64,000 bases of DNA from NCBI GenBank assembly GCA_017510245.1, contig JAFWNQ010000013.1:82720-146719 (forward strand), written 5' to 3'. The DNA is from Clostridia bacterium. GTDB lineage: Bacteria; Bacillota; Clostridia; TANB77; CAG-508. Below the pieces are notes generated by a model, which saw nothing but the letters and a program-made list of their open reading frames with translations, searched no databases and had not been told where the DNA came from. The position numbers and the translations under genes were made by a program. Position 1 is the first letter of the stretch. Every line of letters starts with the position of its first letter. Shown here one piece after another: positions 5,933 through 59,690 of the stretch.

Positions 5933-7795
5933 ATGAATAAAGAAGTAAAGAATAAACTAATACAAATAGTTTTATCAGCTATTTCCTTTATAATTGCTGT
6001 AATTATAGAAAGAAATATGAACCTGCCTATGTGGGAGAATTTATTGGTATTTTTGGTACCATATTTAATTGCTGGATATGATGTGCTAAAAGAAGCCGTT
6101 GAGAGTATTTTAGAAGGGGAATTTCTAGGAGAAGACTTTTTAATGACTATCGCAACTGTAGGTGCATTAGCAATAGGATTCTTACCAAATACAGAATCAC
6201 AATTTGCTGAAGCGGTTTTTGTAATGTTGTTTTTTAAGATTGGAGAACTTTTTGAGGAAATTGCAGAAGAAAAAAGCGAAAAAGCAATTTCTGAGCTAAT
6301 GAACATTAGACCAGACTATGCAAATATCGAAAAAAATGGAAAACTAAAAAAGGTAAAACCTGAATCAATTGAAGTAGGTGATATAATTGTAGTAAAACCT
6401 GGTGAAAGAATACCTTTAGATGGCATTATAAAAGATGGAAAAAGTAGTTTAAATACAGTTGCATTAACAGGAGAGAGTATTCCAAGAGATGTTAATGAGG
6501 GAGATACTGCAAATTCAGGATGTATTAACTTATCAAGCTTAATTAAAATCAAAGTTACAAAAATATTTGAAGAGTCTACTGCTTCTAAAATAATAGATTT
6601 AGTTGAAAATGCTGCTGAAAACAAATCACAAAGTGAAAAGTTTATTACTAAGTTTTCAAAGTATTATACTCCTGTAGTTGTTGTGACAGCTCTTGTTCTA
6701 GCATTTATTCCACCAATTATTTTGGGAAACTTTTCGATATGGCTAACAAGAGCATTAACTTTTTTAGTAGTATCATGTCCTTGTGCACTAGTGATTTCTG
6801 TACCATTAACATTTTTTGGAGGAATAGGTTGTGCTTCTAAAAAGGGAATACTTATTAAAGGAGCTAATTATATAGAAAAGCTTTCTAAAGTAAAAACAGT
6901 TGTGTTTGATAAGACAGGAACTTTAACAGAAGGTGTATTTGAAGTTACTGCTGTACATCCTGAAATATATGATGAAAACAAACTATTGCATTTAGCAGCA
7001 CACGTTGAAAGATATTCAACACATCCTATTGCGCTTTCTCTAAAAGAAGCTTATGAACATGAAGATGATGATTGCTCAGTTTCAGAAATAAAGGAATATT
7101 CAGGAAATGGTATTAAAGCTAAAGTGAATGAGGATATTGTTTATGTTGGAAATTCAAAAATGATGAATGAAATAGGAATAAAATGGAAAAAGTGCAAACA
7201 CTCAGGCACAATAGTTCATGTTGCTATTAATGATGAATATTTAGGCCATATAGTAATTTCTGACAGAATAAAAGAAGAAGCAACTGAAACAGTAAGAGAA
7301 ATTAGAAAAAACAAAATAGGAACAATAATGCTTACTGGTGATCAGGAGAATGTTGCAAAAGCAGTTGCTGAAAAAATAGGAATTGATAAATACTATTCTG
7401 AGCTTCTTCCACAAGATAAGGTGTCTAAATTGGAAGAAGTAATTAGTACTAACAAAGAATATACTGCATTTGTTGGTGATGGAATAAATGATGCACCTGT
7501 TTTAGCAAGATCTGATATAGGAATTGGAATGGGAGGAATTGGATCTGATGCGGCAATAGAAGCAGCAAATGTTGTTATAATGGATGATAAAGTGTCAAAA
7601 ATCTGTAAAGCAATTGAGATTTCTAGAAGAACTCTTATGATTGCTAAAGAAAATATTGTATTTGCAATAGGAATTAAAATACTTGTATTGATACTTGCAT
7701 CATTAGGACTTGCAACTATGTGGATGGCAGTGTTTGCTGATGTGGGTGTAACAGTAATTGCAGTTATCAATGCAATGAGAACTTTATATAAATAG
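5933..7795 (+). CDS. heavy-metal (Cd/Zn/Co-type) P1B-type ATPase without N-terminal metal-binding domain
   Basis: DKTGTLT, SCPCALV (CPC motif), STHPIA (HP motif), GDGINDAP. Confidence 0.9.
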   Translation: MNKEVKNKLIQIVLSAISFIIAVIIERNMNLPMWENLLVFLVPYLIAGYDVLKEAVESILEGEFLGEDFLMTIATVGALAIGFLPNTESQFAEAVFVMLFFKIGELFEEIAEEKSEKAISELMNIRPDYANIEKNGKLKKVKPESIEVGDIIVVKPGERIPLDGIIKDGKSSLNTVALTGESIPRDVNEGDTANSGCINLSSLIKIKVTKIFEESTASKIIDLVENAAENKSQSEKFITKFSKYYTPVVVVTALVLAFIPPIILGNFSIWLTRALTFLVVSCPCALVISVPLTFFGGIGCASKKGILIKGANYIEKLSKVKTVVFDKTGTLTEGVFEVTAVHPEIYDENKLLHLAAHVERYSTHPIALSLKEAYEHEDDDCSVSEIKEYSGNGIKAKVNEDIVYVGNSKMMNEIGIKWKKCKHSGTIVHVAINDEYLGHIVISDRIKEEATETVREIRKNKIGTIMLTGDQENVAKAVAEKIGIDKYYSELLPQDKVSKLEEVISTNKEYTAFVGDGINDAPVLARSDIGIGMGGIGSDAAIEAANVVIMDDKVSKICKAIEISRRTLMIAKENIVFAIGIKILVLILASLGLATMWMAVFADVGVTVIAVINAMRTLYK

Positions 7796-7826
7796 TACAT
7801 AGGTTAATAAAAAGTATATAGTGGGG

Positions 7827-7872
7827 ATGTTTCTAAATTCTTATAAATGTGAGTTTAGAAACATTCTTTTTT
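7827..7872 (+). terminator. intrinsic terminator
   Basis: ATGTTTCTAAA (7827-7837) pairs with TTTAGAAACAT (7854-7864), followed by a T run. Confidence 0.6.
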
Positions 7873-8022
7873 ATATAACAAAGTATTATTCTTTTATGAT
7901 GAGATTAAGTATTATTGTATTAAATTAAGATTGTTTAAAATATGCTTTTTTAAATTATATTGTATTGAAAATTGATAGTTATTGTGGTAAAATTTTTGAT
8001 ATACACAATGGAGGAATAGTAA

Positions 8023-8655
8023 ATGAAATATAATAGATTAATTTTTTCTACAAAAAATCAAGGAAAATTAGAGCAGGTAAGGAATTTACTAATAATTAAT
8101 AATGTAGAAGGTATAGATATTATCTCAGAAAAAGATGTTGGATTTTTAGACGAAGTAATAGAAGATGGAAAAACTTTTGAAGAAAACTCAGAAAAAAAAG
8201 CAAGAACATTATATAATTATTGTATTGAAAACAATATTAATTTAGACAATACAGTAATTTTTGCAGATGATTCAGGTTTGTGCATTGATAAATTGGATGG
8301 AGCACCAGGAATTTATTCTGCTAGGTTTGCTGGAGAAGGTGCTACTGATGATGAAAAAAGAGAAGAAATAATGAATGTTATGAAAGAGTATGAAACTACA
8401 GAAGATAGATCTGCTAGTTTTGTAACTGTGATGACTGGAATACTACCTAATGGAGAAAAAATAGTTTCAAGGGGTGAATGCAAAGGAAGTGTAACAAAGG
8501 AGATTGGAAAAACATTTAGTAAGTTAACATACAATCCAATATTTGTACCAGCAGGATTTGAGAAGCCAATATCAGAAATGAATGAAGAAGAGTTTAAACT
8601 TGTTCCTCACCATAGAGAGATGGCTTTAATGGGGTTAATAAGACAGATATTATAA
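8023..8655 (+). CDS. rdgB: non-canonical purine NTP pyrophosphatase, bacterial RdgB/Ham1 type
   Basis: STKNQGKLEQ and FADDSGLCIDKLDGAPGIYSARFAG motifs. Confidence 0.85.
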   Translation: MKYNRLIFSTKNQGKLEQVRNLLIINNVEGIDIISEKDVGFLDEVIEDGKTFEENSEKKARTLYNYCIENNINLDNTVIFADDSGLCIDKLDGAPGIYSARFAGEGATDDEKREEIMNVMKEYETTEDRSASFVTVMTGILPNGEKIVSRGECKGSVTKEIGKTFSKLTYNPIFVPAGFEKPISEMNEEEFKLVPHHREMALMGLIRQIL

Positions 8656-8715
8656 TACTTGAAAAAAAATAATAACTGTGTTAAATTATTTATAAAGTTT
8701 ACCAAGGAGGAATTG

Positions 8716-8934
8716 GTGTTGAAGAATAATGAAAAAGGTATCACTTTAGCTATGCTAGTAGTTACGATAATAGTAATGCTTATATTGGCAGGGGTAACAT
8801 TAAAAGAACTATCAGAAGATGGCGTTGTTTATGAAGTAAAAAATGCAACACAAAACCAACAAAAAACAATAGATGATGAACAAAAAAAGATGGATGAAGA
8901 AAAAAATGAGCAATTAAAAGATTGGGGATTTTAG
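8716..8934 (+). CDS. 72-aa pseudopilin-like leader protein (stub paralog of the island cassette genes)
   Basis: GTG 8716 lies 5 nt after AAGGAGG. NEKGITLAMLVVTIIVMLILAGVTL is near-identical to the N-termini of the genes at 40106, 42749 and 46074. Confidence 0.55.
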   Translation: MLKNNEKGITLAMLVVTIIVMLILAGVTLKELSEDGVVYEVKNATQNQQKTIDDEQKKMDEEKNEQLKDWGF

Positions 8935-8937
8935 TAA

Positions 8938-9666
8938 ATGTATAGCTTTTTTGTTGATGATGAAAATATAGTGGATAATTATGCTTACGTTGAGGGAGAT
9001 GACTATAATCACATTAAAAATGCATTGAGAATGAAAGAAGGCGAAATAATAAAGATATGCAATAAAAAAAATGGGGACAGTTTTAAAACAAAGATTGAAA
9101 AGATAACTGATACAGAAATACAATGTGCTATTATTGAAAAAATGGATTCAACAGAGTCGAGTGTCAAAGTTGTTATATATCAAGGTTTACCAAAATCAGA
9201 TAAAATGGAATACATAATTCAAAAGTCTGTTGAATTAGGAGTATACAGCATTGTTCCAGTTGAGATGAAATATTGTATAGCCAAAATGAAAAATCATGAA
9301 AAGAAAACTAAAAGGTGGAATTTAATTTCTGAGGCTGCTGCAAAGCAAAGCAAGAGGAGTATTATTCCAAAAATAGAAAATGTTATTGATATAAAAAAGT
9401 TATGTGAGGAAATAAAAAAATATGATTTATCAATTGTGGCCTATGAAAAGGAAAATAAAAAAAGCATAAAAGAATTAATTTCAAATAAGAATAAATTAAA
9501 AGCAATTGCTATAGTGATTGGCCCAGAAGGTGGAATTGACGAATCAGAGGTTGAAATGTTAGAAAAAAATGGAGCTGTATGTGCAACCTTAGGAAAAAGA
9601 ATTTTAAGAACGGAAACTGCTTCAAGTGCAATATTAAGTATGATTATGTATGAATATGAATTATAA
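8938..9666 (+). CDS. rsmE: 16S rRNA (uracil1498-N3)-methyltransferase
   Basis: RsmE-type C-terminus IGPEGGIDESEV ... LGKRILRTETA. Confidence 0.85.
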   Translation: MYSFFVDDENIVDNYAYVEGDDYNHIKNALRMKEGEIIKICNKKNGDSFKTKIEKITDTEIQCAIIEKMDSTESSVKVVIYQGLPKSDKMEYIIQKSVELGVYSIVPVEMKYCIAKMKNHEKKTKRWNLISEAAAKQSKRSIIPKIENVIDIKKLCEEIKKYDLSIVAYEKENKKSIKELISNKNKLKAIAIVIGPEGGIDESEVEMLEKNGAVCATLGKRILRTETASSAILSMIMYEYEL

Positions 9667-19495: not shown

Positions 19496-22400
19496 ATGAA
19501 AAATCATATAATTAGAAACATTTTGCTGATGATTATTATTGTAAGTGCAATCCTAGTTCAAAATTGTGTATTTGGAGCTAACGAGTTAATACTTGGAGAC
19601 ATAAATAAAGATGAAAAAATAGATTCAATAGATCTACTTTATATGATGAGGCACATAGTAGCAGAAAATGATGGAAATCATAAAGAGTGGATTTTAGAGG
19701 ATGAAAAGTATAAGTTAGCAGATATTACACAAAATGGAATAGTTAATTCAAGTGATTTGCTTGTTATATTAAGATATATAGCAGCAAACAACAATCCAGA
19801 AGAAATAGGAAAAAAACATAAAGAGTGGCTTGAAGTTAAAGAGATTGAATCACAAGAATCAAGAGAAGAAAATAATATACTAAAATCAGAAGACGATATT
19901 GAAAAAGAGAATACTTCTAAAAATACGATAGAAATAACCAATACAATTGAAGTATCAAATGAAATAATTGAGACAAATAGTTCTAAAATAGAACCAGATT
20001 TAGTTAATAATACTGAAATAGAAAAAACAAAATCTGAAGTAAAAGCAATTAATCTAAATAAATCTGTAATAGAGATAGAAAAAGGAACTACAGAACAGAT
20101 TATTGCAACAATTGAACCAAAAGAATTAAATAATGAAAAAATTGAATGGAAAATTGCAAATACTCAAATAGCAGAAGTAGATGAAACTGGAAAGATAACA
20201 GCTAAGAAAAATGGTGATACACTATTAACTGCAAGAACTACAAATGGAAAAGAAGCAGTAAGTAAAGTAAGAGTAGGAACATATCCAAAGTCAATAGAAA
20301 TAAACAAAGAAATAGTTAAGATGGACTTAAGTGGAAAAAGAACAGAAAAAGTTGAAGTAATTGTAAAACCAGATGATGCAAGTAATAAAGAAGTTAAAGT
20401 AGATAATAAAAATGAAAGAGTTGCTACAATAGATGGAGAAGGAAAGATAACAGCGAAAGAGAATGGCGAAACAGAGCTAACATTTAAAACTGCAAATGGC
20501 ATAGAGAAAAAGCTAAAAGTAAAAGTAGAAACAAGTGCAACTGGAGTGAAGCTTGATAAGAATTATATACAATTAGATTTAAGTAAAAATAAACAAAGCA
20601 CAATAAAAGCAACAATAGAACCAGGTACAACAAGTAATAAAGGAATAACATATAAGAGTAGTAATGCAGCAATTGCAACAGTAGATAAGAATGGAAAGAT
20701 AACAGCAAAAGGAAATGGAACTGCAAACATAATAGCTAGAACCGCAAATGGAAAAGAAGCAGTATGTAAAGTAGAAGTACAAACAGTAGCAACAAAGATT
20801 AATATGGATAAGAAAGTAAGCATAGACTTAAGTAAAAATACAGAGAAGAAAATAAAAGTAGAAGTAAAACCAGATAGTGCGACTAATAAGTCAGTAATGA
20901 TAAGAAGTGATAATGAAGCAGTAGCAACAATAGATTCTAGTGGAACTATAAAAGCAAAGAAAAATGGGACAGCAACAATTACAGCGCAGATAGCAGGAAC
21001 AGATATAGTAGAGACATGTAAAGTAACAGTAACAACAAGTCCAACAGGATTAAAGATGAGTAAAACAAATGTAAAATTAGATATGAGTGGAACAAAATCA
21101 ATAAAAATAACTGCAGAGGTACAACCAAGTACAGCAAGTAACAAGAAAATAAAATGGACTAATGGAAATAGTAATATAGTATATATGAGTGCATCGGGAA
21201 AAACTGCAACGATAACAGGACTAAAAAATGGAGAAGCCACAATAATAGCAGAAATAGAAGGAACCAACATAAAGAAAACAATTAAAGTAACTGTAACAAC
21301 GAGTCCAACTAAAATAACTTTGAATAAAACAAGTGAAACATTGGATATGAGCGGAGCAAAAACAGTACAACTAAAAGCAAAAGTTGAGCCAAGCACGGCA
21401 GAAAATAAAACAGTAACCTGGAGTAGTGATAATACTAAAGTTGCAACAGTAGATAAAAATGGAAAAGTTACAGGAAAAAATGAAGGAATTGCAACAATAA
21501 CTGCTAAAACACATAATGGAAAAAAAGACACATTCAAAATAACCATAAATAGTACAAAGATATCATTGGATAGGACAATATTAATGATTGATAATACGCA
21601 CTATAATATAGCTGATTTACAAGCTAATCTAAGTTCGACAGCTATATATAAAGGCGATGATATTACATGGACAATTTCAAATTCAAGTGTTGCAAAATTC
21701 AATAAAGATGGAAAGAAGTATTCAACTATTAAGGGAAGTGCAAAAGTTCAAATAGTGGGACTAAGTTTTGGTACAGCAAAAATAACAGTAAAAATACCAA
21801 ATGGTAAGACTGCTACATGTAACTTGAAAGTAATTACTTCATCAAAAGAACAATCTAATGGAGATAGAAGTTACTATTTTAGCAAAGGACATGGAATTAA
21901 TAATAATATGTTTTACTTAAGAAGTGGAACATGGGGAAATGAATATGTTGAAGCATATGTAGATAATATTGCTAAAATAGTTAAAAAGTATCAAGATACA
22001 AAATTTAAAGATGAGGCAGCAGCTAAAAAACTATATTGTTATGAACAAAAAAGTATGAGCATTATCACTAACAATAATACAATAACGAATGTTTCTGGAA
22101 AAGGATATCCTTATACTACAAGTGTTACACCATATAATAATGGCGATTTTAGAAAAATAATAAAAAATAAAGCTAAAGGAGAGATAACACCTAATGACTA
22201 TATTCTACTATTTACATCAAAAAATCAATGGGCATATCTATTGAAAAGAAATAAAAAAGGAAATTGGAAAGTTGTAAGTGCAAATCAGTCTTCAGGAGGA
22301 TATGAGAGAGATCAATTTGAAAGATACTTATGTATAAAATGGATAAGAAGTGGAATAGGACTATCATTAACAGATGTTATCTATAGCGAAACTGCATCAG

Positions 22401-22546
22401 TATATCAGAATTTAATACATACTGGACAAACACCTGGAGTACCAACAAGTGCTGGATGTATACATTTAGCTGGAAGCTATCAAGCAAAAATATACTATAG
22501 ACTATTTGTGGAAGCTGGAGTAGGAACTAGATTTATACTATTCTAA
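19496..22546 (+). CDS. large secreted surface protein: signal peptide + dockerin-type repeats + 7 Big_2 Ig-like repeats + C-terminal YkuD-like (L,D-transpeptidase fold) domain
   Basis: Dockerin EF-hand-like pair GDINKDEKIDSIDLLYMMRHI and ADITQNGIVNSSDLLVILRYIA. Repeated ..ATVDKNGKITAKGNGTA.I.A.. Ig modules. C-terminal HTGQTPGVPTSAGCIHL catalytic-type motif. Confidence 0.85.
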   Translation: MKNHIIRNILLMIIIVSAILVQNCVFGANELILGDINKDEKIDSIDLLYMMRHIVAENDGNHKEWILEDEKYKLADITQNGIVNSSDLLVILRYIAANNNPEEIGKKHKEWLEVKEIESQESREENNILKSEDDIEKENTSKNTIEITNTIEVSNEIIETNSSKIEPDLVNNTEIEKTKSEVKAINLNKSVIEIEKGTTEQIIATIEPKELNNEKIEWKIANTQIAEVDETGKITAKKNGDTLLTARTTNGKEAVSKVRVGTYPKSIEINKEIVKMDLSGKRTEKVEVIVKPDDASNKEVKVDNKNERVATIDGEGKITAKENGETELTFKTANGIEKKLKVKVETSATGVKLDKNYIQLDLSKNKQSTIKATIEPGTTSNKGITYKSSNAAIATVDKNGKITAKGNGTANIIARTANGKEAVCKVEVQTVATKINMDKKVSIDLSKNTEKKIKVEVKPDSATNKSVMIRSDNEAVATIDSSGTIKAKKNGTATITAQIAGTDIVETCKVTVTTSPTGLKMSKTNVKLDMSGTKSIKITAEVQPSTASNKKIKWTNGNSNIVYMSASGKTATITGLKNGEATIIAEIEGTNIKKTIKVTVTTSPTKITLNKTSETLDMSGAKTVQLKAKVEPSTAENKTVTWSSDNTKVATVDKNGKVTGKNEGIATITAKTHNGKKDTFKITINSTKISLDRTILMIDNTHYNIADLQANLSSTAIYKGDDITWTISNSSVAKFNKDGKKYSTIKGSAKVQIVGLSFGTAKITVKIPNGKTATCNLKVITSSKEQSNGDRSYYFSKGHGINNNMFYLRSGTWGNEYVEAYVDNIAKIVKKYQDTKFKDEAAAKKLYCYEQKSMSIITNNNTITNVSGKGYPYTTSVTPYNNGDFRKIIKNKAKGEITPNDYILLFTSKNQWAYLLKRNKKGNWKVVSANQSSGGYERDQFERYLCIKWIRSGIGLSLTDVIYSETASVYQNLIHTGQTPGVPTSAGCIHLAGSYQAKIYYRLFVEAGVGTRFILF
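20039..21835 (+). repeat. seven tandem ~80-codon Big_2-type coding repeats
   Basis: Periodic protein repeats are visible in the translation. This repetitiveness also produces the long spurious antisense ORFs. Confidence 0.8.
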
Positions 22547-40105: not shown

Positions 40106-41666
40106 ATGAAAAATTTTGAGAAAAAAGAGATCAAAACTAGTAAAGGTATTACTTTGATAGCCCTTGTTGTTACTATAATAGTTCTTTTAGTTTTAGCTGG
40201 AATATCAATTAATATAGCAATGGGAAGTAATGGATTAATACAACGAGCCAGAGATTCTAAAATTGAAAATGAAAAAGGGCGAGAAAAGGAAATTATTGCA
40301 TTTGCTTATGATTCTGCATTAATTAAAAAAACAAGTAATGGTGATTCAACAGCTGTAACAGTAGAAGATTTAAATATTGAATTAGCAAATCAAGGAGCAA
40401 CAGCTGATGGAAGTAGCCCAATTAAAGTTACATTTACAGCATCTAAACGACAATATAATATAAATAATGGAATAGTAGATTATGCTGGAATAAAAACGGA
40501 TAATCCAGCGGGAGATGGACTAGAAGGCTTATCTAGTGCAGAAGTAGCATTACTTCCAACAGGAGTTACAGAAAAAGCAATAGAAAAAATATCAAATGAT
40601 AACTTAAAAGATGCTACGAAAATAAAAGCTGTAATTACAGATAGTGATAATGGAGAAGTACCAATTCCAAAAGGTGCTAGTTATAAAGAAGGAAGTGAAT
40701 CATCAGGCGTAGTAATTGAATATAAAGGAAGTCAATTTGTATGGGTTCCAATAGATGGTAATTTAACAGTAAAAGGAACTAACAAATTAATGGCAAAAGA
40801 ATCAACAGGAGATTATGCAGGAACAACTAATGGACTAACTAATTATGATGGAATGCTATATGATTTTGTAAATATAAATTCTACATTTGATCCAAGGACA
40901 GGACCATCAACTACCATTACAGTGTTAGATGAACCTCAGCCTATATCAAGAACTCAAAGCGAAAATTATAGTGCATGGTCAATAGAACCTGATTTATTAG
41001 AATCGTATGATACGGACGATCTAGATAAAATAAAAACGGAATTTTACTATAAAACGGGTGATGCAAGCGTAGAAAATTTAACACAGACATATATAGAATC
41101 AATAGGATATTCAACAACTACTCTCTGGAAAAACGAATTACAAGGTAGTTATAATGCTATGATAGACAGTGTAAAAAAGTATGGTGGATTCTATGTTGGA
41201 AGATATGAAAGTAGTATAAGTGGAACAACAGTAGCATCAATATCAGGTGTAACACCAATGAGCAATATAAATTGGTATCAAATGTATAAAAAACAAAAAG
41301 ATTTTTCAGGAAATGGAACAGATACTTTACAGTCAAATATGATATGGGGAAGCCAATATGATGCTATGCTTAATTGGATGTTAACGGGTTCAGATGCAGA
41401 AAAGATAAATTTATCATCAAATGATAATACTAGCACAACAAATACTGGAGCAACAGAAACAGATATACTAAATAATATATATGATTTAAAAGGCAATTAC
41501 ATTGAATTTACAGCGGAAGCAAGAAATAGTGGTGCTACGGCTACCCCAACAATGAGGAGTGTTAGACGGCAAAAATTATGCTCTTGCTGGATATCGTGAC
41601 TGTTTGGAACCTGATTACAATGGTTATAGTGATTGTTCATCTAGGATGGCATTGTATATTAATTGA
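40106..41666 (+). pseudogene. cassette gene 1: pseudopilin-like leader + FGE-sulfatase/C-type-lectin-like ectodomain, +1 frameshift near the 3' end
   Basis: SKGITLIALVVTIIVLLVLAGISI leader; GGFYVGRYE ... NNIYDLKGNYIEFT blocks. The track ORF ends at 41599. A second frame (41556-41666) encodes ..YALAGYRDCLEPDYNGYSDCSSRMALYIN, homologous to the remnant at 42240-42461. Confidence 0.7.
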
Positions 41667-42095: not shown

Positions 42096-42169
42096 GCAGA
42101 TGTAGTTCATCGGTAGAATGTGGCCTTCCCAAGGCTAAGAGGTGGGTTCGATTCCTATCATCTGCTCCA
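42096..42169 (+). tRNA. tRNA-Gly (anticodon CCC), copy 2 (one T-stem C-to-T change giving a G-U pair)
   Basis: Identical to copy 1 except for 1 nt within the tRNA. The duplication also includes GCTCCAA.TTTA upstream. Confidence 0.8.
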
Positions 42170-42171
42170 AA

Positions 42172-42461
42172 AGAAAGAACTCAAGAAACTCGGAGAGAAA
42201 CTTGTAGGGAAACTCGGGGACGTCCATCAAAATTCCCATGAAGCAATAAAAACTGGAGAATATGAGCAAACAAAATCAAATAATATATATGATTTAGCGG
42301 GAAATTTAGCAGAATGGACTACAGAATCTTGTAATGACACATTAAGGACTTTAAGAGGATCTGAATTTGGTGAAGGTGGATATGGTGTTGATAATCGTGC
42401 TGAAGAACAAACTTCTTATGATGGAGATATTACAGGTTTTCGACTTGCATTATATTTGTAA
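42172..42461 (+). pseudogene. orphan 3' remnant of an FGE/C-type-lectin-like cassette gene
   Basis: ..SNNIYDLAGNLAEWTTESCNDTLRTLRGSEFGEGGYGVDNRAEEQTSYDGDITGFRLALYL aligns with the C-terminus of gene 1. There is no leader, promoter or RBS. The track ORF start lies inside the tRNA. Confidence 0.6.
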
Positions 42462-42748: not shown

Positions 42749-44095
42749 ATGAAAAATATATTTATAAATGTTCAAAAATCAAGTAAAGGTATCACTCTGA
42801 TAGCCATGGTTGTTACAATAATAGTTTTACTAATCTTAGCAGGAATAAGTATTACAATGACTATAGGGGAAAATGGATTAATAACAAAAGCAGGAGGAGG
42901 ATCAAAGAGTATAAAATATGCAACATATAAAGAAGAAGTAGACTTATATTTTCAAGGTGAATTCACAAAAAGCAAAGGTAATAGTGACGCTTATAATGTA
43001 TCTATAACAGATAAAACAAAATTAAAAGAAATAATGCCAAAAGCTACAGATACAGATTTAGATAAACTATTAATTCAAAATGGAAAACTAGTATATGATC
43101 CAGAAAAAGTTGACAATTCAGAAAAAGAATTAATGGAAAGGATAGGAATATTATCAATGACTCTTAGAGCTACGATAGTATTTATAGTAAATGGACAAGA
43201 GTATGCTAGAATACAATCTGATAAAATAGAATTTCCAGAGCTTATACCAGAATCAACTTCTGATGGATATACTTTTATAGGCTGGTATTATGATCAAGAA
43301 GCTATCTATCCTTTTATTAATAGAGCAGATATCCTAAACAATATTTCTGGAGGATATATGGATGCGTCAGTACATGAACAAAACAAAGCATATGAGGGTG
43401 ATGATATTGATGAAAATGAAATAACTCTTTATGCAACTTTTAGAGGAAATTCAGCTCTAAATACTTGTTTAGCTAAAGGAACCAAGGTTACACTTGCAGA
43501 TAAATCAAAAAAGAATATAGAAGATATAACTTATGAAGATAGATTACTTGTATGGAATTTTGATGAAGGAAAAATTGATAATGCAGAGCCGGTATGGATT
43601 ATGAAGAAAGAACAAGCAAATAAATATTTGCAATTTAAATTTGAAAATGGTATGGAATTAAAACTTACTATACATAGAATATTTAATGTTGATAAGCAAA
43701 TATTCGCAAATGCAGATATGGATGAAGAAATGCCAATTGGAACAACAGTATTTTTAGAAGATGGAACAACAACAAAATTAATTGAAAAGAATGAAATAGA
43801 AGAAGTTATAGATGTTTATAATGTTATGACAAAAGAGCATATTAATCTATTTGCAGAAGGAATTTTAACATCATTAAGATTTAATGAACTATACGATATT
43901 AAAAATATGAAATTTATAAAAGATAATAGGGAACTAAATGAAAGAGAAAAATATGAAAATATACCAGATAACTATTTCTATGGTTTAAGACTTGCAGAAC
44001 AAAAAAATACCTTAACAGAAGATGGTAATATTTGGTGGGAAGATAGAGTAATCAATGTATTAATGAAGAATGAAAGATATTCAAATGCTAGCTAA
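42749..44095 (+). CDS. cassette gene 2: pseudopilin-like leader + Listeria-Bacteroides-type B-repeat + Hint (hedgehog/intein-like) module + 73-aa tail
   Basis: SSKGITLIAMVVTIIVLLILAGISI; GYTFIGWYYDQ..ITLYATF; C240-LAKGTKVTLADKSKKNIEDITYEDRLLVW ... VIDVYNVMTKEHINLFAEGILTS. Confidence 0.8.
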   Translation: MKNIFINVQKSSKGITLIAMVVTIIVLLILAGISITMTIGENGLITKAGGGSKSIKYATYKEEVDLYFQGEFTKSKGNSDAYNVSITDKTKLKEIMPKATDTDLDKLLIQNGKLVYDPEKVDNSEKELMERIGILSMTLRATIVFIVNGQEYARIQSDKIEFPELIPESTSDGYTFIGWYYDQEAIYPFINRADILNNISGGYMDASVHEQNKAYEGDDIDENEITLYATFRGNSALNTCLAKGTKVTLADKSKKNIEDITYEDRLLVWNFDEGKIDNAEPVWIMKKEQANKYLQFKFENGMELKLTIHRIFNVDKQIFANADMDEEMPIGTTVFLEDGTTTKLIEKNEIEEVIDVYNVMTKEHINLFAEGILTSLRFNELYDIKNMKFIKDNRELNEREKYENIPDNYFYGLRLAEQKNTLTEDGNIWWEDRVINVLMKNERYSNAS

Positions 44096-44135: not shown

Positions 44136-44909
44136 GTGAATGTAAAAGAAAATCTTAGAATTTCAATTACATCATTATGTAATATGCAATGCAGATATTG
44201 CCATAATGAGGGAAACATTGAAGAATCAATACTCACAAAAAATCAAATAAAAAAGATTATTGATAGCTTAGATGGACATGAAATTGCATCAGTAAGACTT
44301 ACTGGAGGTGAGCCACTTATATCTCCAGAAATTGAAGATATATGTGAATTGCTAGCCATACAATATGGAATAAATGTTGAAATAAATACTAATGGTATAG
44401 AGATAGATAAACTTTTAAAATTAATCAATAGAGGCTGGGTAAAAGGGGTAGTAATTGGAATTGATTTATTTGATGCAGATATATCAAAAAGTTCGCCAAT
44501 TGGACAAAGCTCAAAAACTATAAAAGAAAATATTTTAAGAATTAAACAAACTGATTGCAATGTATATATTGATATGGTATACAATGGGGATAATAATAAT
44601 GCTGAAAAAATGATTAGATGGGCTATTAATAACGACATTGAAATAAGAATTCTTGAGATGGTAAGTAGACACATTGATAAATTATATGTTAAAAAGTTTA
44701 ATGAGTTACAAAGTATAATTTCAAATAAAATTGAACTTAATTGGTATATTGATAGAGAATTACACGAATTAAAAGGAACTATGAATGGAAAAACTTTAGT
44801 AATATTTTATAATTCATTATGCAGATTACAATTATGCAACTTGTGCAAAAAAATACAAATTAGAATTACAAGCAATGGTACTTTTAGACCATGTATAATG
44901 AACTTTTAA
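44136..44909 (+). CDS. MoaA-family radical SAM protein lacking the MoaA C-terminal tail
   Basis: GTG start 6 nt after AGGAG. LRISITSLCNMQCRYCHNEG, VRLTGGEPL, NTNG, IEIRILEM, CNLCKKIQIRITSNGTFRPCI. The ORF ends 4 codons later. Confidence 0.85.
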   Translation: MNVKENLRISITSLCNMQCRYCHNEGNIEESILTKNQIKKIIDSLDGHEIASVRLTGGEPLISPEIEDICELLAIQYGINVEINTNGIEIDKLLKLINRGWVKGVVIGIDLFDADISKSSPIGQSSKTIKENILRIKQTDCNVYIDMVYNGDNNNAEKMIRWAINNDIEIRILEMVSRHIDKLYVKKFNELQSIISNKIELNWYIDRELHELKGTMNGKTLVIFYNSLCRLQLCNLCKKIQIRITSNGTFRPCIMNF

Positions 44910-45109: not shown

Positions 45110-45853
45110 GTGAAGAAGAGCATTGGTTTTCTGATAATAATAATCTGCATGTTTGCTATTTTAGGGGTTACAGCATGTGGATCAACTGCACAGGTTGAGA
45201 AAGAATCTGAAAACAGTCAAGAAGATTCACCGACCTGGGTGACAGAACTTGCAGAGGCAGAGAATGCAGAGCAGGTATTTGTGATAGCAGGTGTGGGAGA
45301 CACAACTGCTTACGTCTCAATGCATGAACGCACTTCTGATGGAAATTGGAAGACGATTATGACCACGCCTGGATATATTGGCAAAAAAGGTCTAGGTAAG
45401 ACGAAAGAAGGAGACGCAAAGACTCCGGTTGGTACATATCACTTTACTAGAGCTTTTGGAATTGCTCCAGATCCTGGATGCACTGATTTCGACTACAAAC
45501 AAGTAAGTGATGACGATTGGTGGTCAGGAGATTCAAACTACCATTATAACGAGATGGTAGATATTAAGGATTATCCGGAACTTAGCCAAGATGACAGTGA
45601 GCATATAGTCGATTATACTTATCAATACCAGTATTGCTTGAACATTAGCTATAACGAAGATGGTGAGGCGGGAAAGGGCTCTGCAATTTTCTTGCATTGC
45701 TTTGGTCCTTATAAACCTTATACTGGTGGGTGTGTTTCGATTCCTAGAGCTGAAATGGAAACGGTTTTGAAAAACGTCAGAAAGGATTGTATTGTAATTA
45801 TCGATTCTCTTGAAAATCTCAGTCCTGAAACATGGGAGGAATGGGATTTGTAG
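45110..45853 (+). CDS. lipoprotein with L,D-transpeptidase-like (YkuD-fold) domain (GC-rich module D)
   Basis: Lipobox ILGVTAC; GKGSAIFLHCFGPYKPYTGGCVSIP catalytic-type motif. GTG start after AAGGAG. 47% G+C in a hand-counted 100-nt sample. Confidence 0.85.
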   Translation: MKKSIGFLIIIICMFAILGVTACGSTAQVEKESENSQEDSPTWVTELAEAENAEQVFVIAGVGDTTAYVSMHERTSDGNWKTIMTTPGYIGKKGLGKTKEGDAKTPVGTYHFTRAFGIAPDPGCTDFDYKQVSDDDWWSGDSNYHYNEMVDIKDYPELSQDDSEHIVDYTYQYQYCLNISYNEDGEAGKGSAIFLHCFGPYKPYTGGCVSIPRAEMETVLKNVRKDCIVIIDSLENLSPETWEEWDL

Positions 45854-57128: not shown

Positions 57129-57321
57129 TTATTATTTGTAAAAAAATGCATAATTTAATATGTCAAGTCATTACAACTAATTACTTAAAAGATTTGAACA
57201 CTATGATGCAGAGGGGAGTAAAGAGATTTTATTATAAAAATAATTAAAAATTTGTTAGTTCTTGACAATATTTGTAATCTAGTATAATATAATATTGAAT
57301 ATTTATAAAAGAGGGATAAAA

Positions 57322-58476
57322 ATGATAGATTTTCTTATTGAGAATAAAAAAATAGTAATTATAATTTCAATAGTTTTAGTTTTAGCTATAGCAGGAACTG
57401 TTGCTTATAAAGTGTTTACAAGTAAGAATAAATATGAAGAGTCTGAATTTGAGCAAGAGTCAAAACAAGCTTGGGAAGAATATGACTCTTTTGATGATGA
57501 GGCAATTGCAGAACAATTTGAAGAACCAGAGGAAGGTTTAGAAGAAGGTGAAAAACCAAAAGTAGATCAAAATAAAAATAGTGATGGAAAGAGCAGTGGA
57601 GGAAATTCATTTTTAATTAAAGTAAATAAACAAGCAAATGTTGTTACTGTTTATAAAAAAGATGATAATGGAGACTATACAGTGCCAGTAAAGGCAATGA
57701 TTTGTTCAACTGGGCCATATACTCCTTCTTGTGGAAAATATCCAAAATCATCATATCAAACAACAGGTGGAAAAAGAAGATGGGCACTTTTACAGGGAAA
57801 TGTTTATGGTCAATATGCAACTCAGATAGTAGGTAATATTCTTTTCCATTCAGTACCTTATACTGCACAAAATCCATCTGCTTTGGAGTATTGGGAATAT
57901 GATAAGTTGGGAACAGCAGCTTCAGCTGGATGTATTAGACTAACTGTAGCAGATGCTCAATGGGTATATAATAATATAGGAGGAGGGACAACGGTTGAAT
58001 TTTACTCTAGTTCTAATCCTGGACCATTAGGAAAGCCATCAGCACAAAAGATTTCAAGTAATGAAAAATGTAGAGGATGGGATCCAACAGATTGGTCTGA
58101 AGGAAATCCATGGAAAAGTGTAAGTGTTCAACCACAACCAGAAGAATTGGATGCAAAACCGGAAGAAACTAATGAAACTAATACTACAACCAATACAAGC
58201 ACTAATTCAACTACAACAAATAAAACAAGTCCAGGAACTGGAACAGGAAAATCTTCTGGATATAGTCAAAATACAACTTCAAGCAATACTACAACCAATA
58301 CTACAAAATCTGAAACTGAATCAATAGATAATGATAATAATAGTGATGATGATAATTATGGAGCTTATTCTTCTTCAAGTGACAATACTCAAAGCCAGTC
58401 AGGAAGTGGAGAACAAACAGGTGGAACCACTGATTCTACAGTGAATGAAGGCACAGGAGAAACTCCATCTGAATAA
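57322..58476 (+). CDS. membrane-anchored L,D-transpeptidase (YkuD) with S/T/N-rich C-terminal tail
   Basis: FHSVPYTAQ...GTAASAGCIRLTVADAQWVYNN. ATG 57322 follows AGAGGGA. Confidence 0.85.
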   Translation: MIDFLIENKKIVIIISIVLVLAIAGTVAYKVFTSKNKYEESEFEQESKQAWEEYDSFDDEAIAEQFEEPEEGLEEGEKPKVDQNKNSDGKSSGGNSFLIKVNKQANVVTVYKKDDNGDYTVPVKAMICSTGPYTPSCGKYPKSSYQTTGGKRRWALLQGNVYGQYATQIVGNILFHSVPYTAQNPSALEYWEYDKLGTAASAGCIRLTVADAQWVYNNIGGGTTVEFYSSSNPGPLGKPSAQKISSNEKCRGWDPTDWSEGNPWKSVSVQPQPEELDAKPEETNETNTTTNTSTNSTTTNKTSPGTGTGKSSGYSQNTTSSNTTTNTTKSETESIDNDNNSDDDNYGAYSSSSDNTQSQSGSGEQTGGTTDSTVNEGTGETPSE

Positions 58477-58898: not shown

Positions 58899-59690
58899 AT
58901 GAGTATGAAAGATAGTAAAATATATGCATTAGCTATTTCAATAGTTATAATTGCCATAATATTAAAAACTTATGAACGAATCAAACTGAGTAGAGAGGCT
59001 ATTTTAGAAGATGTTAATCAAATATCTAAAATTGAGGTTTTAGATGATAAAAATGATTATAAGGATGAAAATGCATTAACAATTGAATTAGAAAATAATA
59101 ATTTAGAAGAAAATATAGTAGTGGAAGAAATAGCTGAAAAAAAGTATAATGAAGGAATATCAGGATCAAATCCATATTATATAGTAGTTAATAAACAAGA
59201 AAATGTTGTTACAATATATACAAAAGATCAAGAAGGCTATTATACTGAACCATTTAAAGCAATGATATGTTCAACAGGAATTTATACTCCTCAATGTAGT
59301 AAGTATCCTAAAGAAACATATAAAACTACAGGTTCAAAGAATAGATGGAATTACTTACAAAGAAATGTTTATGGGCAATATGCAACACAAATAGTGGGAA
59401 ACATATTATTTCATTCAGTACCATATAAAAGAAGAGATGTTTCAACTTTGGAGTATTGGGAGTATGACTTGCTTGGAACAAAAGCTTCAGTGGGGTGTAT
59501 TAGACTTACTGTTGAAGATGCAAAATGGATATATGATAACATTTCTGCAGGAACGATGGTTAGATTTTGCGAGGAAGATGATGTAGGACCATTAGGTAAG
59601 CCAGAAGCAAAGAAGATTTCGGATAATGAAGAATGCCGAAATTGGGATCCAACAGATGACCATGAAGGAAATCCATGGAAAACAGAATAA
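58899..59690 (+). CDS. membrane-anchored L,D-transpeptidase (YkuD), paralog of 57322..58476
   Basis: FHSVPYKRR...GTKASVGCIRLTVEDAKWIYDN. Long blocks are identical to the upstream paralog. Confidence 0.85.
   Translation: MSMKDSKIYALAISIVIIAIILKTYERIKLSREAILEDVNQISKIEVLDDKNDYKDENALTIELENNNLEENIVVEEIAEKKYNEGISGSNPYYIVVNKQENVVTIYTKDQEGYYTEPFKAMICSTGIYTPQCSKYPKETYKTTGSKNRWNYLQRNVYGQYATQIVGNILFHSVPYKRRDVSTLEYWEYDLLGTKASVGCIRLTVEDAKWIYDNISAGTMVRFCEEDDVGPLGKPEAKKISDNEECRNWDPTDDHEGNPWKTE

Follow-up and report, generated by a model that had tools for sequence, protein, structure and literature searches.

Reviews of Hint (hedgehog/intein) domains recognize four types, namely inteins, Hog-Hint domains, and A-type and B-type bacterial intein-like (BIL) domains, and BIL domains have been reported to autocleave at their N-terminal end (PMC7765530). 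For BIL2, transfer of the N-extein to lysine side chains has been reported (PMC8616854), which provides a precedent for amine transfer, and hedgehog processing goes through a branched thioester in which the acyl group has moved to Cys143 (PMC12054796). This paper describes a Hint module at the C-terminus of a 448-residue protein with a pilin-like leader, encoded by an open reading frame (ORF) at 42749..44095 (+ strand) of a 64,000-nucleotide stretch of contig JAFWNQ010000013.1 from a Clostridia bacterium; this whole stretch is referred to as the window. As it lacks the defining features of every named type that was tested, the module is assigned to a separate Hint subfamily that is large and uncharacterised, has a conserved extension of its own and is consistently found at the C-terminus. 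It is arranged like Hog, with the cargo N-terminal to a terminal Hint domain plus extension, and in structure it is closest to the BIL domains. The parts of the protein, the boundaries of which rest in part on an AlphaFold2 (AF2) model, are the following.

42749..42865, + strand: N-terminal leader (aa 1-14, ending with the G of KG-I) and hydrophobic helix (aa 15-39)
42866..43465, + strand: variable cargo (ectodomain), aa 40-239, delimited by a Flg_new match and AF2 secondary structure
43466..43873, + strand: mini-Hint core, aa 240-375 (136 aa), delimited by Foldseek matches in the PDB and invariant columns
43466..43468, + strand: Cys240, N-terminal nucleophile of the Hint module, Cys in 100% of 362 aligned relatives
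43673-43678, + strand: His309-Arg310 (block B), key residues of the Hint core
43874..44017, + strand: conserved C-terminal extension, aa 376-423, delimited by conservation in 362 relatives and an AF2 predicted local distance difference test score (pLDDT) of 85-96
44018..44092, + strand: variable linker and terminal amphipathic helix, aa 424-448 (helix 429-439 by AF2)

The first-pass annotation, made from the letters alone, had placed a Hint autoprocessing-type module at 43466-44092, at the end of a protein with a pilin-like leader. These coordinates are exact, since the Cys240 codon occupies 43466-43468 and residue 448 ends at 44092, the stop codon being 44093-44095. The module itself is real, as AF2 and Foldseek both show the Hint fold: the AF2 model of residues 236-448, built with a 92-sequence alignment, reached a pLDDT of 93.2 and a predicted TM-score (pTM) of 0.90, and the top 50 Foldseek matches in the PDB were all Hint folds (BIL, intein, hedgehog). 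The best match was BIL2 of T. thermophila (Tetrahymena; 6y75, E 2e-12, TM-score on the target 0.83), and further matches included the C. thermocellum BIL domain 2lwy (E 5e-9), dozens of mini-inteins, and hedgehog 1at0 (E 1.6e-7). Each match aligned about 146 columns, corresponding to the Hint core only, and no solved structure found by Foldseek in the PDB aligned past the core into the extension. The comparison with hidden Markov models that had been proposed for this region gave a weak answer: Pfam Hint (PF01079) matched the query at E 5e-4 and 20 bits, and the query and its relatives together at 20-22 bits, so that with a cutoff of 29.7 a match to the Hog-domain model is not reached; Hom_end_hint matched at E 3e-3 over the first 28 residues of the module; NCBIfam intein_Nterm reached 24.7 bits on the fragment against a cutoff of 24.5; and neither Hint_2 nor PT-HINT matched the query. 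No Pfam or NCBIfam model covered the module above threshold, and sequence searches of the PDB returned marginal matches only, with BIL2 at E 0.011 and nothing below E 0.07 in a profile search. The support from sequence models is thus weak and that from the predicted structure decisive, and residues 240-375 are modelled as a true mini-Hint fold.

The catalytic residues were assessed in an alignment of 362 full-length module copies from bacterial genomes, viral contigs and protein libraries. Every Hint reaction opens with a step that needs Cys1 and the block-B His, and these two residues, here Cys240 and His309, are invariant (100%); Trp269, Phe271 and Asp272 are conserved in at least 99%, Asn366 and Ser375 in 99%, Asn358 and Thr374 in 98%, and His364 in 96% of the copies; besides His309-Arg310, the key residues of the core are Tyr357-Asn358, His364, Asn366 and, closing the last strand, Thr374-Ser375. 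C-terminal cleavage and splicing would need a terminal Asn and a C-extein with a nucleophile at +1, and both are absent. With a core of 136 aa there is no endonuclease insert, as the first-pass annotation had stated. It had also read Thr-Ser in place of the splicing His-Asn, of which the absence of His-Asn stands; the register may be one off, as a HMMER alignment with BIL2 puts Ser375-Leu376 at these positions. In some members, the first Hint hairpin contains a highly charged insert (e.g. 'EVEEEEEDEKGNKKKRRKKKR'), just past the Cys-x-x-G-T motif (P0072, P0109, P0092 and P0117; loci L014, L025 and L027).

Several of these features distinguish the module from the types to which it is most similar. 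Like the BIL domains, which are its best structural matches (6y75, 2lwy), it is found in variable, secreted, non-housekeeping proteins. However, it lacks the penultimate His and terminal Asn of A-type BIL domains (Ser375 is 99% conserved, and position 376 is Cys, Leu, Asn or Arg), and the B-type model Hint_2 (PF13403) was matched neither by the query (E<=1) nor by any of 92 relatives (E<=0.01); moreover, BIL domains are internal, whereas the module is terminal and has a unique conserved extension. Unlike inteins, it has no C-extein starting with Cys, Ser or Thr and no terminal Asn, and it runs to the stop codon.

A tail of 73 aa indeed follows the Hint core, and the first-pass annotation had considered its release as a C-terminal toxin or peptide, proposing a survey of homologous tails and a structure prediction. 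Both spoke for a different view. The first ~48 residues of the tail are conserved across phyla and viruses, and as strongly as the catalytic core (Tyr382 in 100%, Arg414 and Glu417 in 99%, Lys391 in 98%, Ile384 in 97%, Gln418 in 93%, and Arg377 and Arg394 in 90% of the 362 relatives; N379 and G412 are also near-invariant), and variation is confined to the last ~25, where the family alignment shows linkers of differing length and a partly conserved 'EYVxRL' helix (aa 424-448). The extension reads L-R-F-N-E-L-Y-D-I-K-N-M-K-F-I-K-D-N-R ... Y-F-Y-G-L-R-L-A-E-Q and is predicted by AF2 to form a beta-hairpin (383-390) and a short helix (407-412); the tail and the Hint core were modelled together as one compact unit (pTM 0.90), the tail being an invariant structural extension of the Hint fold, which is one of the outcomes that the first-pass annotation had named as refuting its reading. 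Its first position, 376, is Leu in the query, Cys in 51% of the family and otherwise Leu, Asn or Arg. Accordingly, 51% of members, and 61% of phage-type members, have N-G-I-L-T-S-C at the end of the Hint core, and Leu occupies position 376 in 50 of the 59 members that share the leader type of the query. In inteins and hedgehog, the N- and C-termini of the Hint fold meet at the active site, and the extension, which starts with L/C-R-x-N-N-x-Y, would thus begin at the catalytic cleft. Alignment and model together suggest that the extension belongs to the catalytic or structural unit and not to the cargo, and its invariant polar residues could be part of the active site or of an acceptor site. 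By the same token, the last 209 residues of the protein are best described as one autonomous and portable module, consisting of a mini-Hint domain and a conserved extension of ~50-70 aa, rather than as variable cargo.

The family to which this module belongs was delimited in searches of several databases. More than 2000 relatives were found among 5.8 billion proteins, and the best 120 were mapped back onto the query; most of these match residues ~240-418 only, at 45-62% identity, and in most the similarity sets in at Cys240 or only a few residues away from it, the parts upstream being unrelated. The match is thus more than chance. A profile of the module alone retrieved 881 proteins at E<=1e-30 and 3033 at E<=1e-10 from 1.84 billion representatives, the 881 being clusters at 50% identity. 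The module is a fixed C-terminal cassette, made up of the Cys and ~205 residues up to the stop codon: in 381 proteins a median of 6 residues followed the end of the alignment, and more than 40 residues followed in only 13. Two kinds of exception to the terminal position occur: in one protein the module is duplicated in tandem, and in four others a HAD_SAK_2 domain follows it. The duplication is found in a tail-fibre-like protein of 1052 aa (P0121), which has two tandem module copies at its C-terminus (residues 645-832 and 848-1042). The four fusions (P0243, P0225, P0201 and L110:5347-7038, one of them in a giant-virus bin) carry ~145 aa of HAD_SAK_2 (PF18143, E 3.5e-17) with 'FLDHQG' instead of DxDG as motif I, and they are the only cases found with a C-terminal passenger on the module.

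Upstream of this constant part, the proteins differ. In bacteria, where one genome per species was scanned, 61 loci were found, nearly all in uncultured metagenome-assembled genomes (MAGs). Their hosts are Clostridia, Erysipelotrichaceae, Bacilli and Tenericutes, gut Alphaproteobacteria, Gastranaerophilaceae, Neisseriaceae, Burkholderiales and Arenicellales. The N-terminal leaders fit the phylum (KGITLIALVV in Clostridia, KGFTLVELLAV in Erysipelotrichaceae, SAFTLAEVLITL in Gastranaerophilaceae, and GRSMVEMLGVLAVIGVLS in Alphaproteobacteria), the relatives in other phyla having canonical FTLxE leaders, and the remaining bacterial members have Sec or twin-arginine translocation (TAT) signals or membrane anchors. 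Some MAGs encode several module copies with differing cargo. Next to the closest homologue (P0002, locus L146) lies a second leader-plus-Hint gene that is split into overlapping ORFs (7479-8714 and 8674-9327; 411 and 217 aa) and represents a paralogue with a frameshift or else an error of the assembly. A scan of IMG/VR added at least 99 viral relatives, and the contigs among the matches listed have a G+C content of 24-55% and include contigs of 300-570 kb and two giant-virus bins. Signal peptides are absent from the viral members, whose N-terminal parts are of the kind found in tail fibres (e.g. '...GDPLRTAFIKTDENFDNIW', collagen-like repeats) and which match PHROG tail-fibre and baseplate-connector families. 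In BFVD, only the Gaeavirus 'Hint domain-containing protein' A0A3G5A239 fits the whole module (205 columns, TM-score 0.88, 42% identity). Searches with tblastn of the phage records of INPHARED and the plasmids of PLSDB gave zero matches to the module, PHROGs contains no family that covers it, and a description was not found in the literature on Hint or BIL domains with pilins, tail fibres or receptor-binding proteins. The cassette thus sits on interchangeable N-terminal parts, which are pilin-like or Sec leaders in bacteria and tail-fibre-like proteins in viruses. Found at the end of hundreds of proteins of phage tail-fibre-like, giant-virus and bacterial surface type, it probably serves as a portable cassette for self-cleavage, and not to release a toxin.

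In the query, the leader (GITLIAMVVTIIVLLILAGISI) is of a divergent type-IV-pilin-like or class III kind, in which Gly14 is present, position +1 is Ile, and position +5 is Ala and not Glu. A leader of the same type occurs in 59 of the 362 family members. A membrane helix is predicted by AF2 at aa 17-39, and in the full-length model (pLDDT 81) it is followed by a long helix (51-74), a small domain (79-132) and a beta domain (141-233). The latter includes a Listeria-Bacteroides (Flg_new) repeat at aa 142-184 (Pfam, E 1.5e-4, sub-threshold), a repeat that is present in 38 of 92 relatives. Modular type IV pilins such as S. sanguinis PilB likewise combine a pilin-type leader and helix with grafted functional modules (PMC8179133), but the leader of the query is divergent (no Glu5), and a modular pilin with a Hint module was not found in the literature.

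The reading that is considered rather likely is that autocleavage between Thr239 and Cys240 removes the module and frees the mature ectodomain. In the mechanism proposed from sequence and model, the protein would be exported via its pilin-like leader and the module would fold outside the membrane, after which Cys240, helped by His309, would perform an N-to-S acyl shift that converts the Thr239-Cys240 peptide bond into a thioester. Splicing would be impossible, because there is neither a terminal Asn nor a C-extein, which leaves cleavage or transfer at the N-terminal side of the module, at Cys240, as the only available chemistry and means that the thioester would be resolved by a nucleophile. 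With water as the default nucleophile, the 209-aa module of ~24 kDa would be cut off and the ectodomain would end at Thr239. In support of this autocleavage, the boundary of the cassette coincides with the predicted cleavage site, Thr239 being the last residue of the ectodomain, one before the predicted scissile bond, and a linker (aa 234-237) that is disordered in the AF2 model (pLDDT <50) lying immediately ahead of Cys240. The Hint fold with its invariant Cys240 and His309, the missing splicing route, the extension conserved like the core and co-folded with it, the interchangeable N-terminal parts, the lack of a conserved neighbouring gene in 61 bacterial and 80 viral loci and the size of the family count in its favour as well. 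Moreover, as the same cassette ends phage tail-fibre-like proteins, it would behave as a general self-removing C-terminal maturation module for extracellular fibres and adhesins. Such a role would resemble that of Peptidase_S74, the autocleaving C-terminal intramolecular chaperone of tailspikes, in that a constant, self-removing C-terminal module is carried by variable fibres; the two would, however, differ in origin, as fold and chemistry are unrelated (a Ser-Lys dyad versus the Hint thioester) and the domains are not homologous.

Several observations weigh against this reading. The pilin-like leader has no Glu5, and Pfam N_methyl (PF07963) scores 16.1 bits on aa 10-34, under its cutoff of 21.2. 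The block-B Thr is off the canonical TxxH spacing, with T-x-H in the query and T-x-x-x-H in the family consensus. Furthermore, R414, E417, Q418, K391 and N379 resemble a binding or catalytic site more than a passive cap, and as polar, near-invariant residues they fit a directed transfer better than plain hydrolysis; the position of the extension residues relative to Cys240 is deduced from Hint topology alone.

The transfer to which these residues point is the alternative that survives best, although it is considered unlikely. It resembles Hog-type ligation, in that the thioester at Thr239 would be passed to a specific acceptor placed by the conserved extension, for instance to an amine or hydroxyl group that belongs to the cell envelope, to a neighbouring subunit of the fibre or to a target surface, so that the C-terminus of the pilin or tail-fibre cargo would become covalently attached. 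Although the hosts are bacteria and viruses for the module and eukaryotes for hedgehog, the architecture is indeed that of hedgehog, where a secreted protein likewise has swappable N-terminal cargo followed, at its extreme C-terminus, by a Hint domain and an extension of ~70 aa; the Cys1 nucleophile and block-B His are shared, a terminal Asn and splicing are absent from both, and in fold 1at0 is matched at E 1.6e-7. At the Cys143 position, half of the family likewise has Cys, and the Hint end N-G-I-L-T-S-C of these members (51%) resembles N-S-V-A-A-S-C143 of hedgehog. Invariant Arg, Glu, Gln and Tyr in the extension are what a binding site would have, and the C-terminus of a phage tail fibre is its distal, target-facing end. 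In addition, the closest solved structure, BIL2, is the one for which transfer of the N-extein to Lys side chains has been reported (PMC8616854).

Several points nevertheless speak against a ligation of this kind. Whereas the sterol-recognition region (SRR) of hedgehog is hydrophobic, the extension is polar and charged, and no similarity between the two was detected; an hhalign comparison with Drosophila Hh-C covers the first 88 columns only, at a probability of 5%, and is uninformative for the extension. In the same low-confidence register (probability 5%), the position of the hedgehog Asp46 is Lys in the query, and Lys (68%) or Met (20%) in the family. A comparison of the motifs N-G-I-L-T-S-x and N-S-V-A-A-S-C143 puts Leu376 at the Cys143 position, and with Leu here, as in 50 of the 59 members of the leader clade, the branched-thioester step would be skipped in this protein. 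If one extension were to serve gut Clostridia, Proteobacteria, freshwater phages and giant viruses alike, its acceptor would have to be universal, and no conserved partner gene was found in 61 bacterial and 80 viral loci. More doubtful still is the wider proposal that the module is the prokaryotic and viral counterpart of Hog, in which the extension would position an acceptor and the thioester would couple a pilin-like adhesin or tail-fibre tip to a surface molecule or a neighbouring subunit.

Also improbable, and ranked below both, is a non-cleaving structural domain, that is, a Hint fold co-opted for C-terminal binding or oligomerisation, in which the Cys has been retained for some other purpose, such as metal binding or a disulfide. 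The non-canonical spacing of the block-B Thr and the variability of position 376 would be accommodated, and as the module is extracellular the Cys could oxidise; on the other hand, the invariant residues are exactly the catalytic set of the acyl shift (Cys1 and block-B His) plus the block F/G motifs, the boundary of the cassette coincides with the Cys, and catalytically dead Hint relatives usually lose Cys1.

The release of the 73-aa tail as a polymorphic toxin or signalling peptide is very improbable and was rejected: although PT-HINT (PF07591) domains share the Hint fold in secreted multidomain proteins, the model matches 9 of 92 relatives weakly (best E 3.9e-7) and a few members have an extra domain (HAD_SAK_2) after the module, the query itself has no PT-HINT match at E<=1, the tail is conserved instead of polymorphic and modelled as packed on the Hint core, no Asn or other known route would cut between the two, no toxin is present, no immunity-like gene follows and nothing downstream is conserved, and a constant C-terminal side with a variable N-terminal side is the reverse of the polarity of polymorphic toxins.

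Although the chemistry proposed here is familiar, the size of the family, its restriction to uncultured bacteria and viruses, and its use by both pilin-like proteins and tail fibres would be new to specialists. The module fits the defining sequence features of none of the four reviewed Hint types, and yet the family is large (881 clusters) and spans bacteria, phages and giant-virus bins. It would be one maturation cassette common to two classes of extracellular filaments, type-IV-pilin-like proteins and phage tail fibres. Should self-cleavage hold, annotations of tail fibres and adhesins in metagenomes overstate the mature protein by ~205 residues, and the module could act as a compact C-terminal self-cleaving or ligation tag. 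Should it transfer its cargo to an acceptor instead, this would be the first hedgehog-style ligation outside eukaryotes, and a Hog counterpart would provide covalent attachment independent of ATP and of sortases and hint at a route for the origin of Hog-type domains.

The contig that encodes the protein is chromosomal and contains a Suf cluster, aminoacyl-tRNA synthetases, FtsH, a class A penicillin-binding protein, NrdD/NrdG and P-type ATPases; its host is Clostridia-like, makes peptidoglycan and has a low G+C content (~29%). One gene adjoins the Hint gene:

44136-44909: radical S-adenosylmethionine (SAM) gene, MoaA-like, 257 aa, directly downstream of the Hint gene

That a radical SAM gene and no immunity-like gene follows had been correctly observed in the first-pass annotation. 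The encoded protein is short and has no MoaA C-terminal domain. An orthologue with 50% identity adjoins one other homologue only, on a second metagenome contig (L148, 4991-5788), where it lies upstream, and ORF clustering did not find the gene at other loci among the 61 in bacteria. Since only this one other homologue has it, the adjacency was treated as local synteny, and a functional tie, with the orthologue on the opposite side, was rejected. No neighbouring gene family recurs in the 61 bacterial loci, save SecA in 10 of them, and no partner gene is shared across the 80 viral loci, so that nothing points to a dedicated partner gene and the module is autonomous. Pilus-assembly or competence machinery is not encoded within the 64-kb window.

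Four ORFs of the window have a GITLIALV-type divergent pilin-like leader KGITLIALVVTIIVLLILAG, with starts at 8719 (8719-8856), 40106, 42749 and 46074; the three besides the Hint gene do not contain the module, and the window has no second copy of it. The ORF at 40106-41599 encodes 497 aa with a GITLIALV leader and ends in a '...NNIYDLKGNYIEFTAEA' motif. This motif is repeated ('NNIYDLAGNLAEWTTES...RGSEF...GFRLALYL') in a leaderless ORF of 113 aa at 42120-42461, 520 bp downstream, which matches the FGE-sulfatase family (PF03781) weakly (E 0.009). The latter resembles a paralogue, broken or incomplete, of a surface protein that has an FGE-like domain, and may be a pseudogene. Elsewhere, the window contains three genes for YkuD-type L,D-transpeptidases (45110-45853, 57295-58476 and 58899-59690). 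Finally, a protein of 1016 aa encoded at 19496-22546 combines six Big_2 domains with an N-terminal type I dockerin, which suggests cohesin-dockerin surface display in the host.

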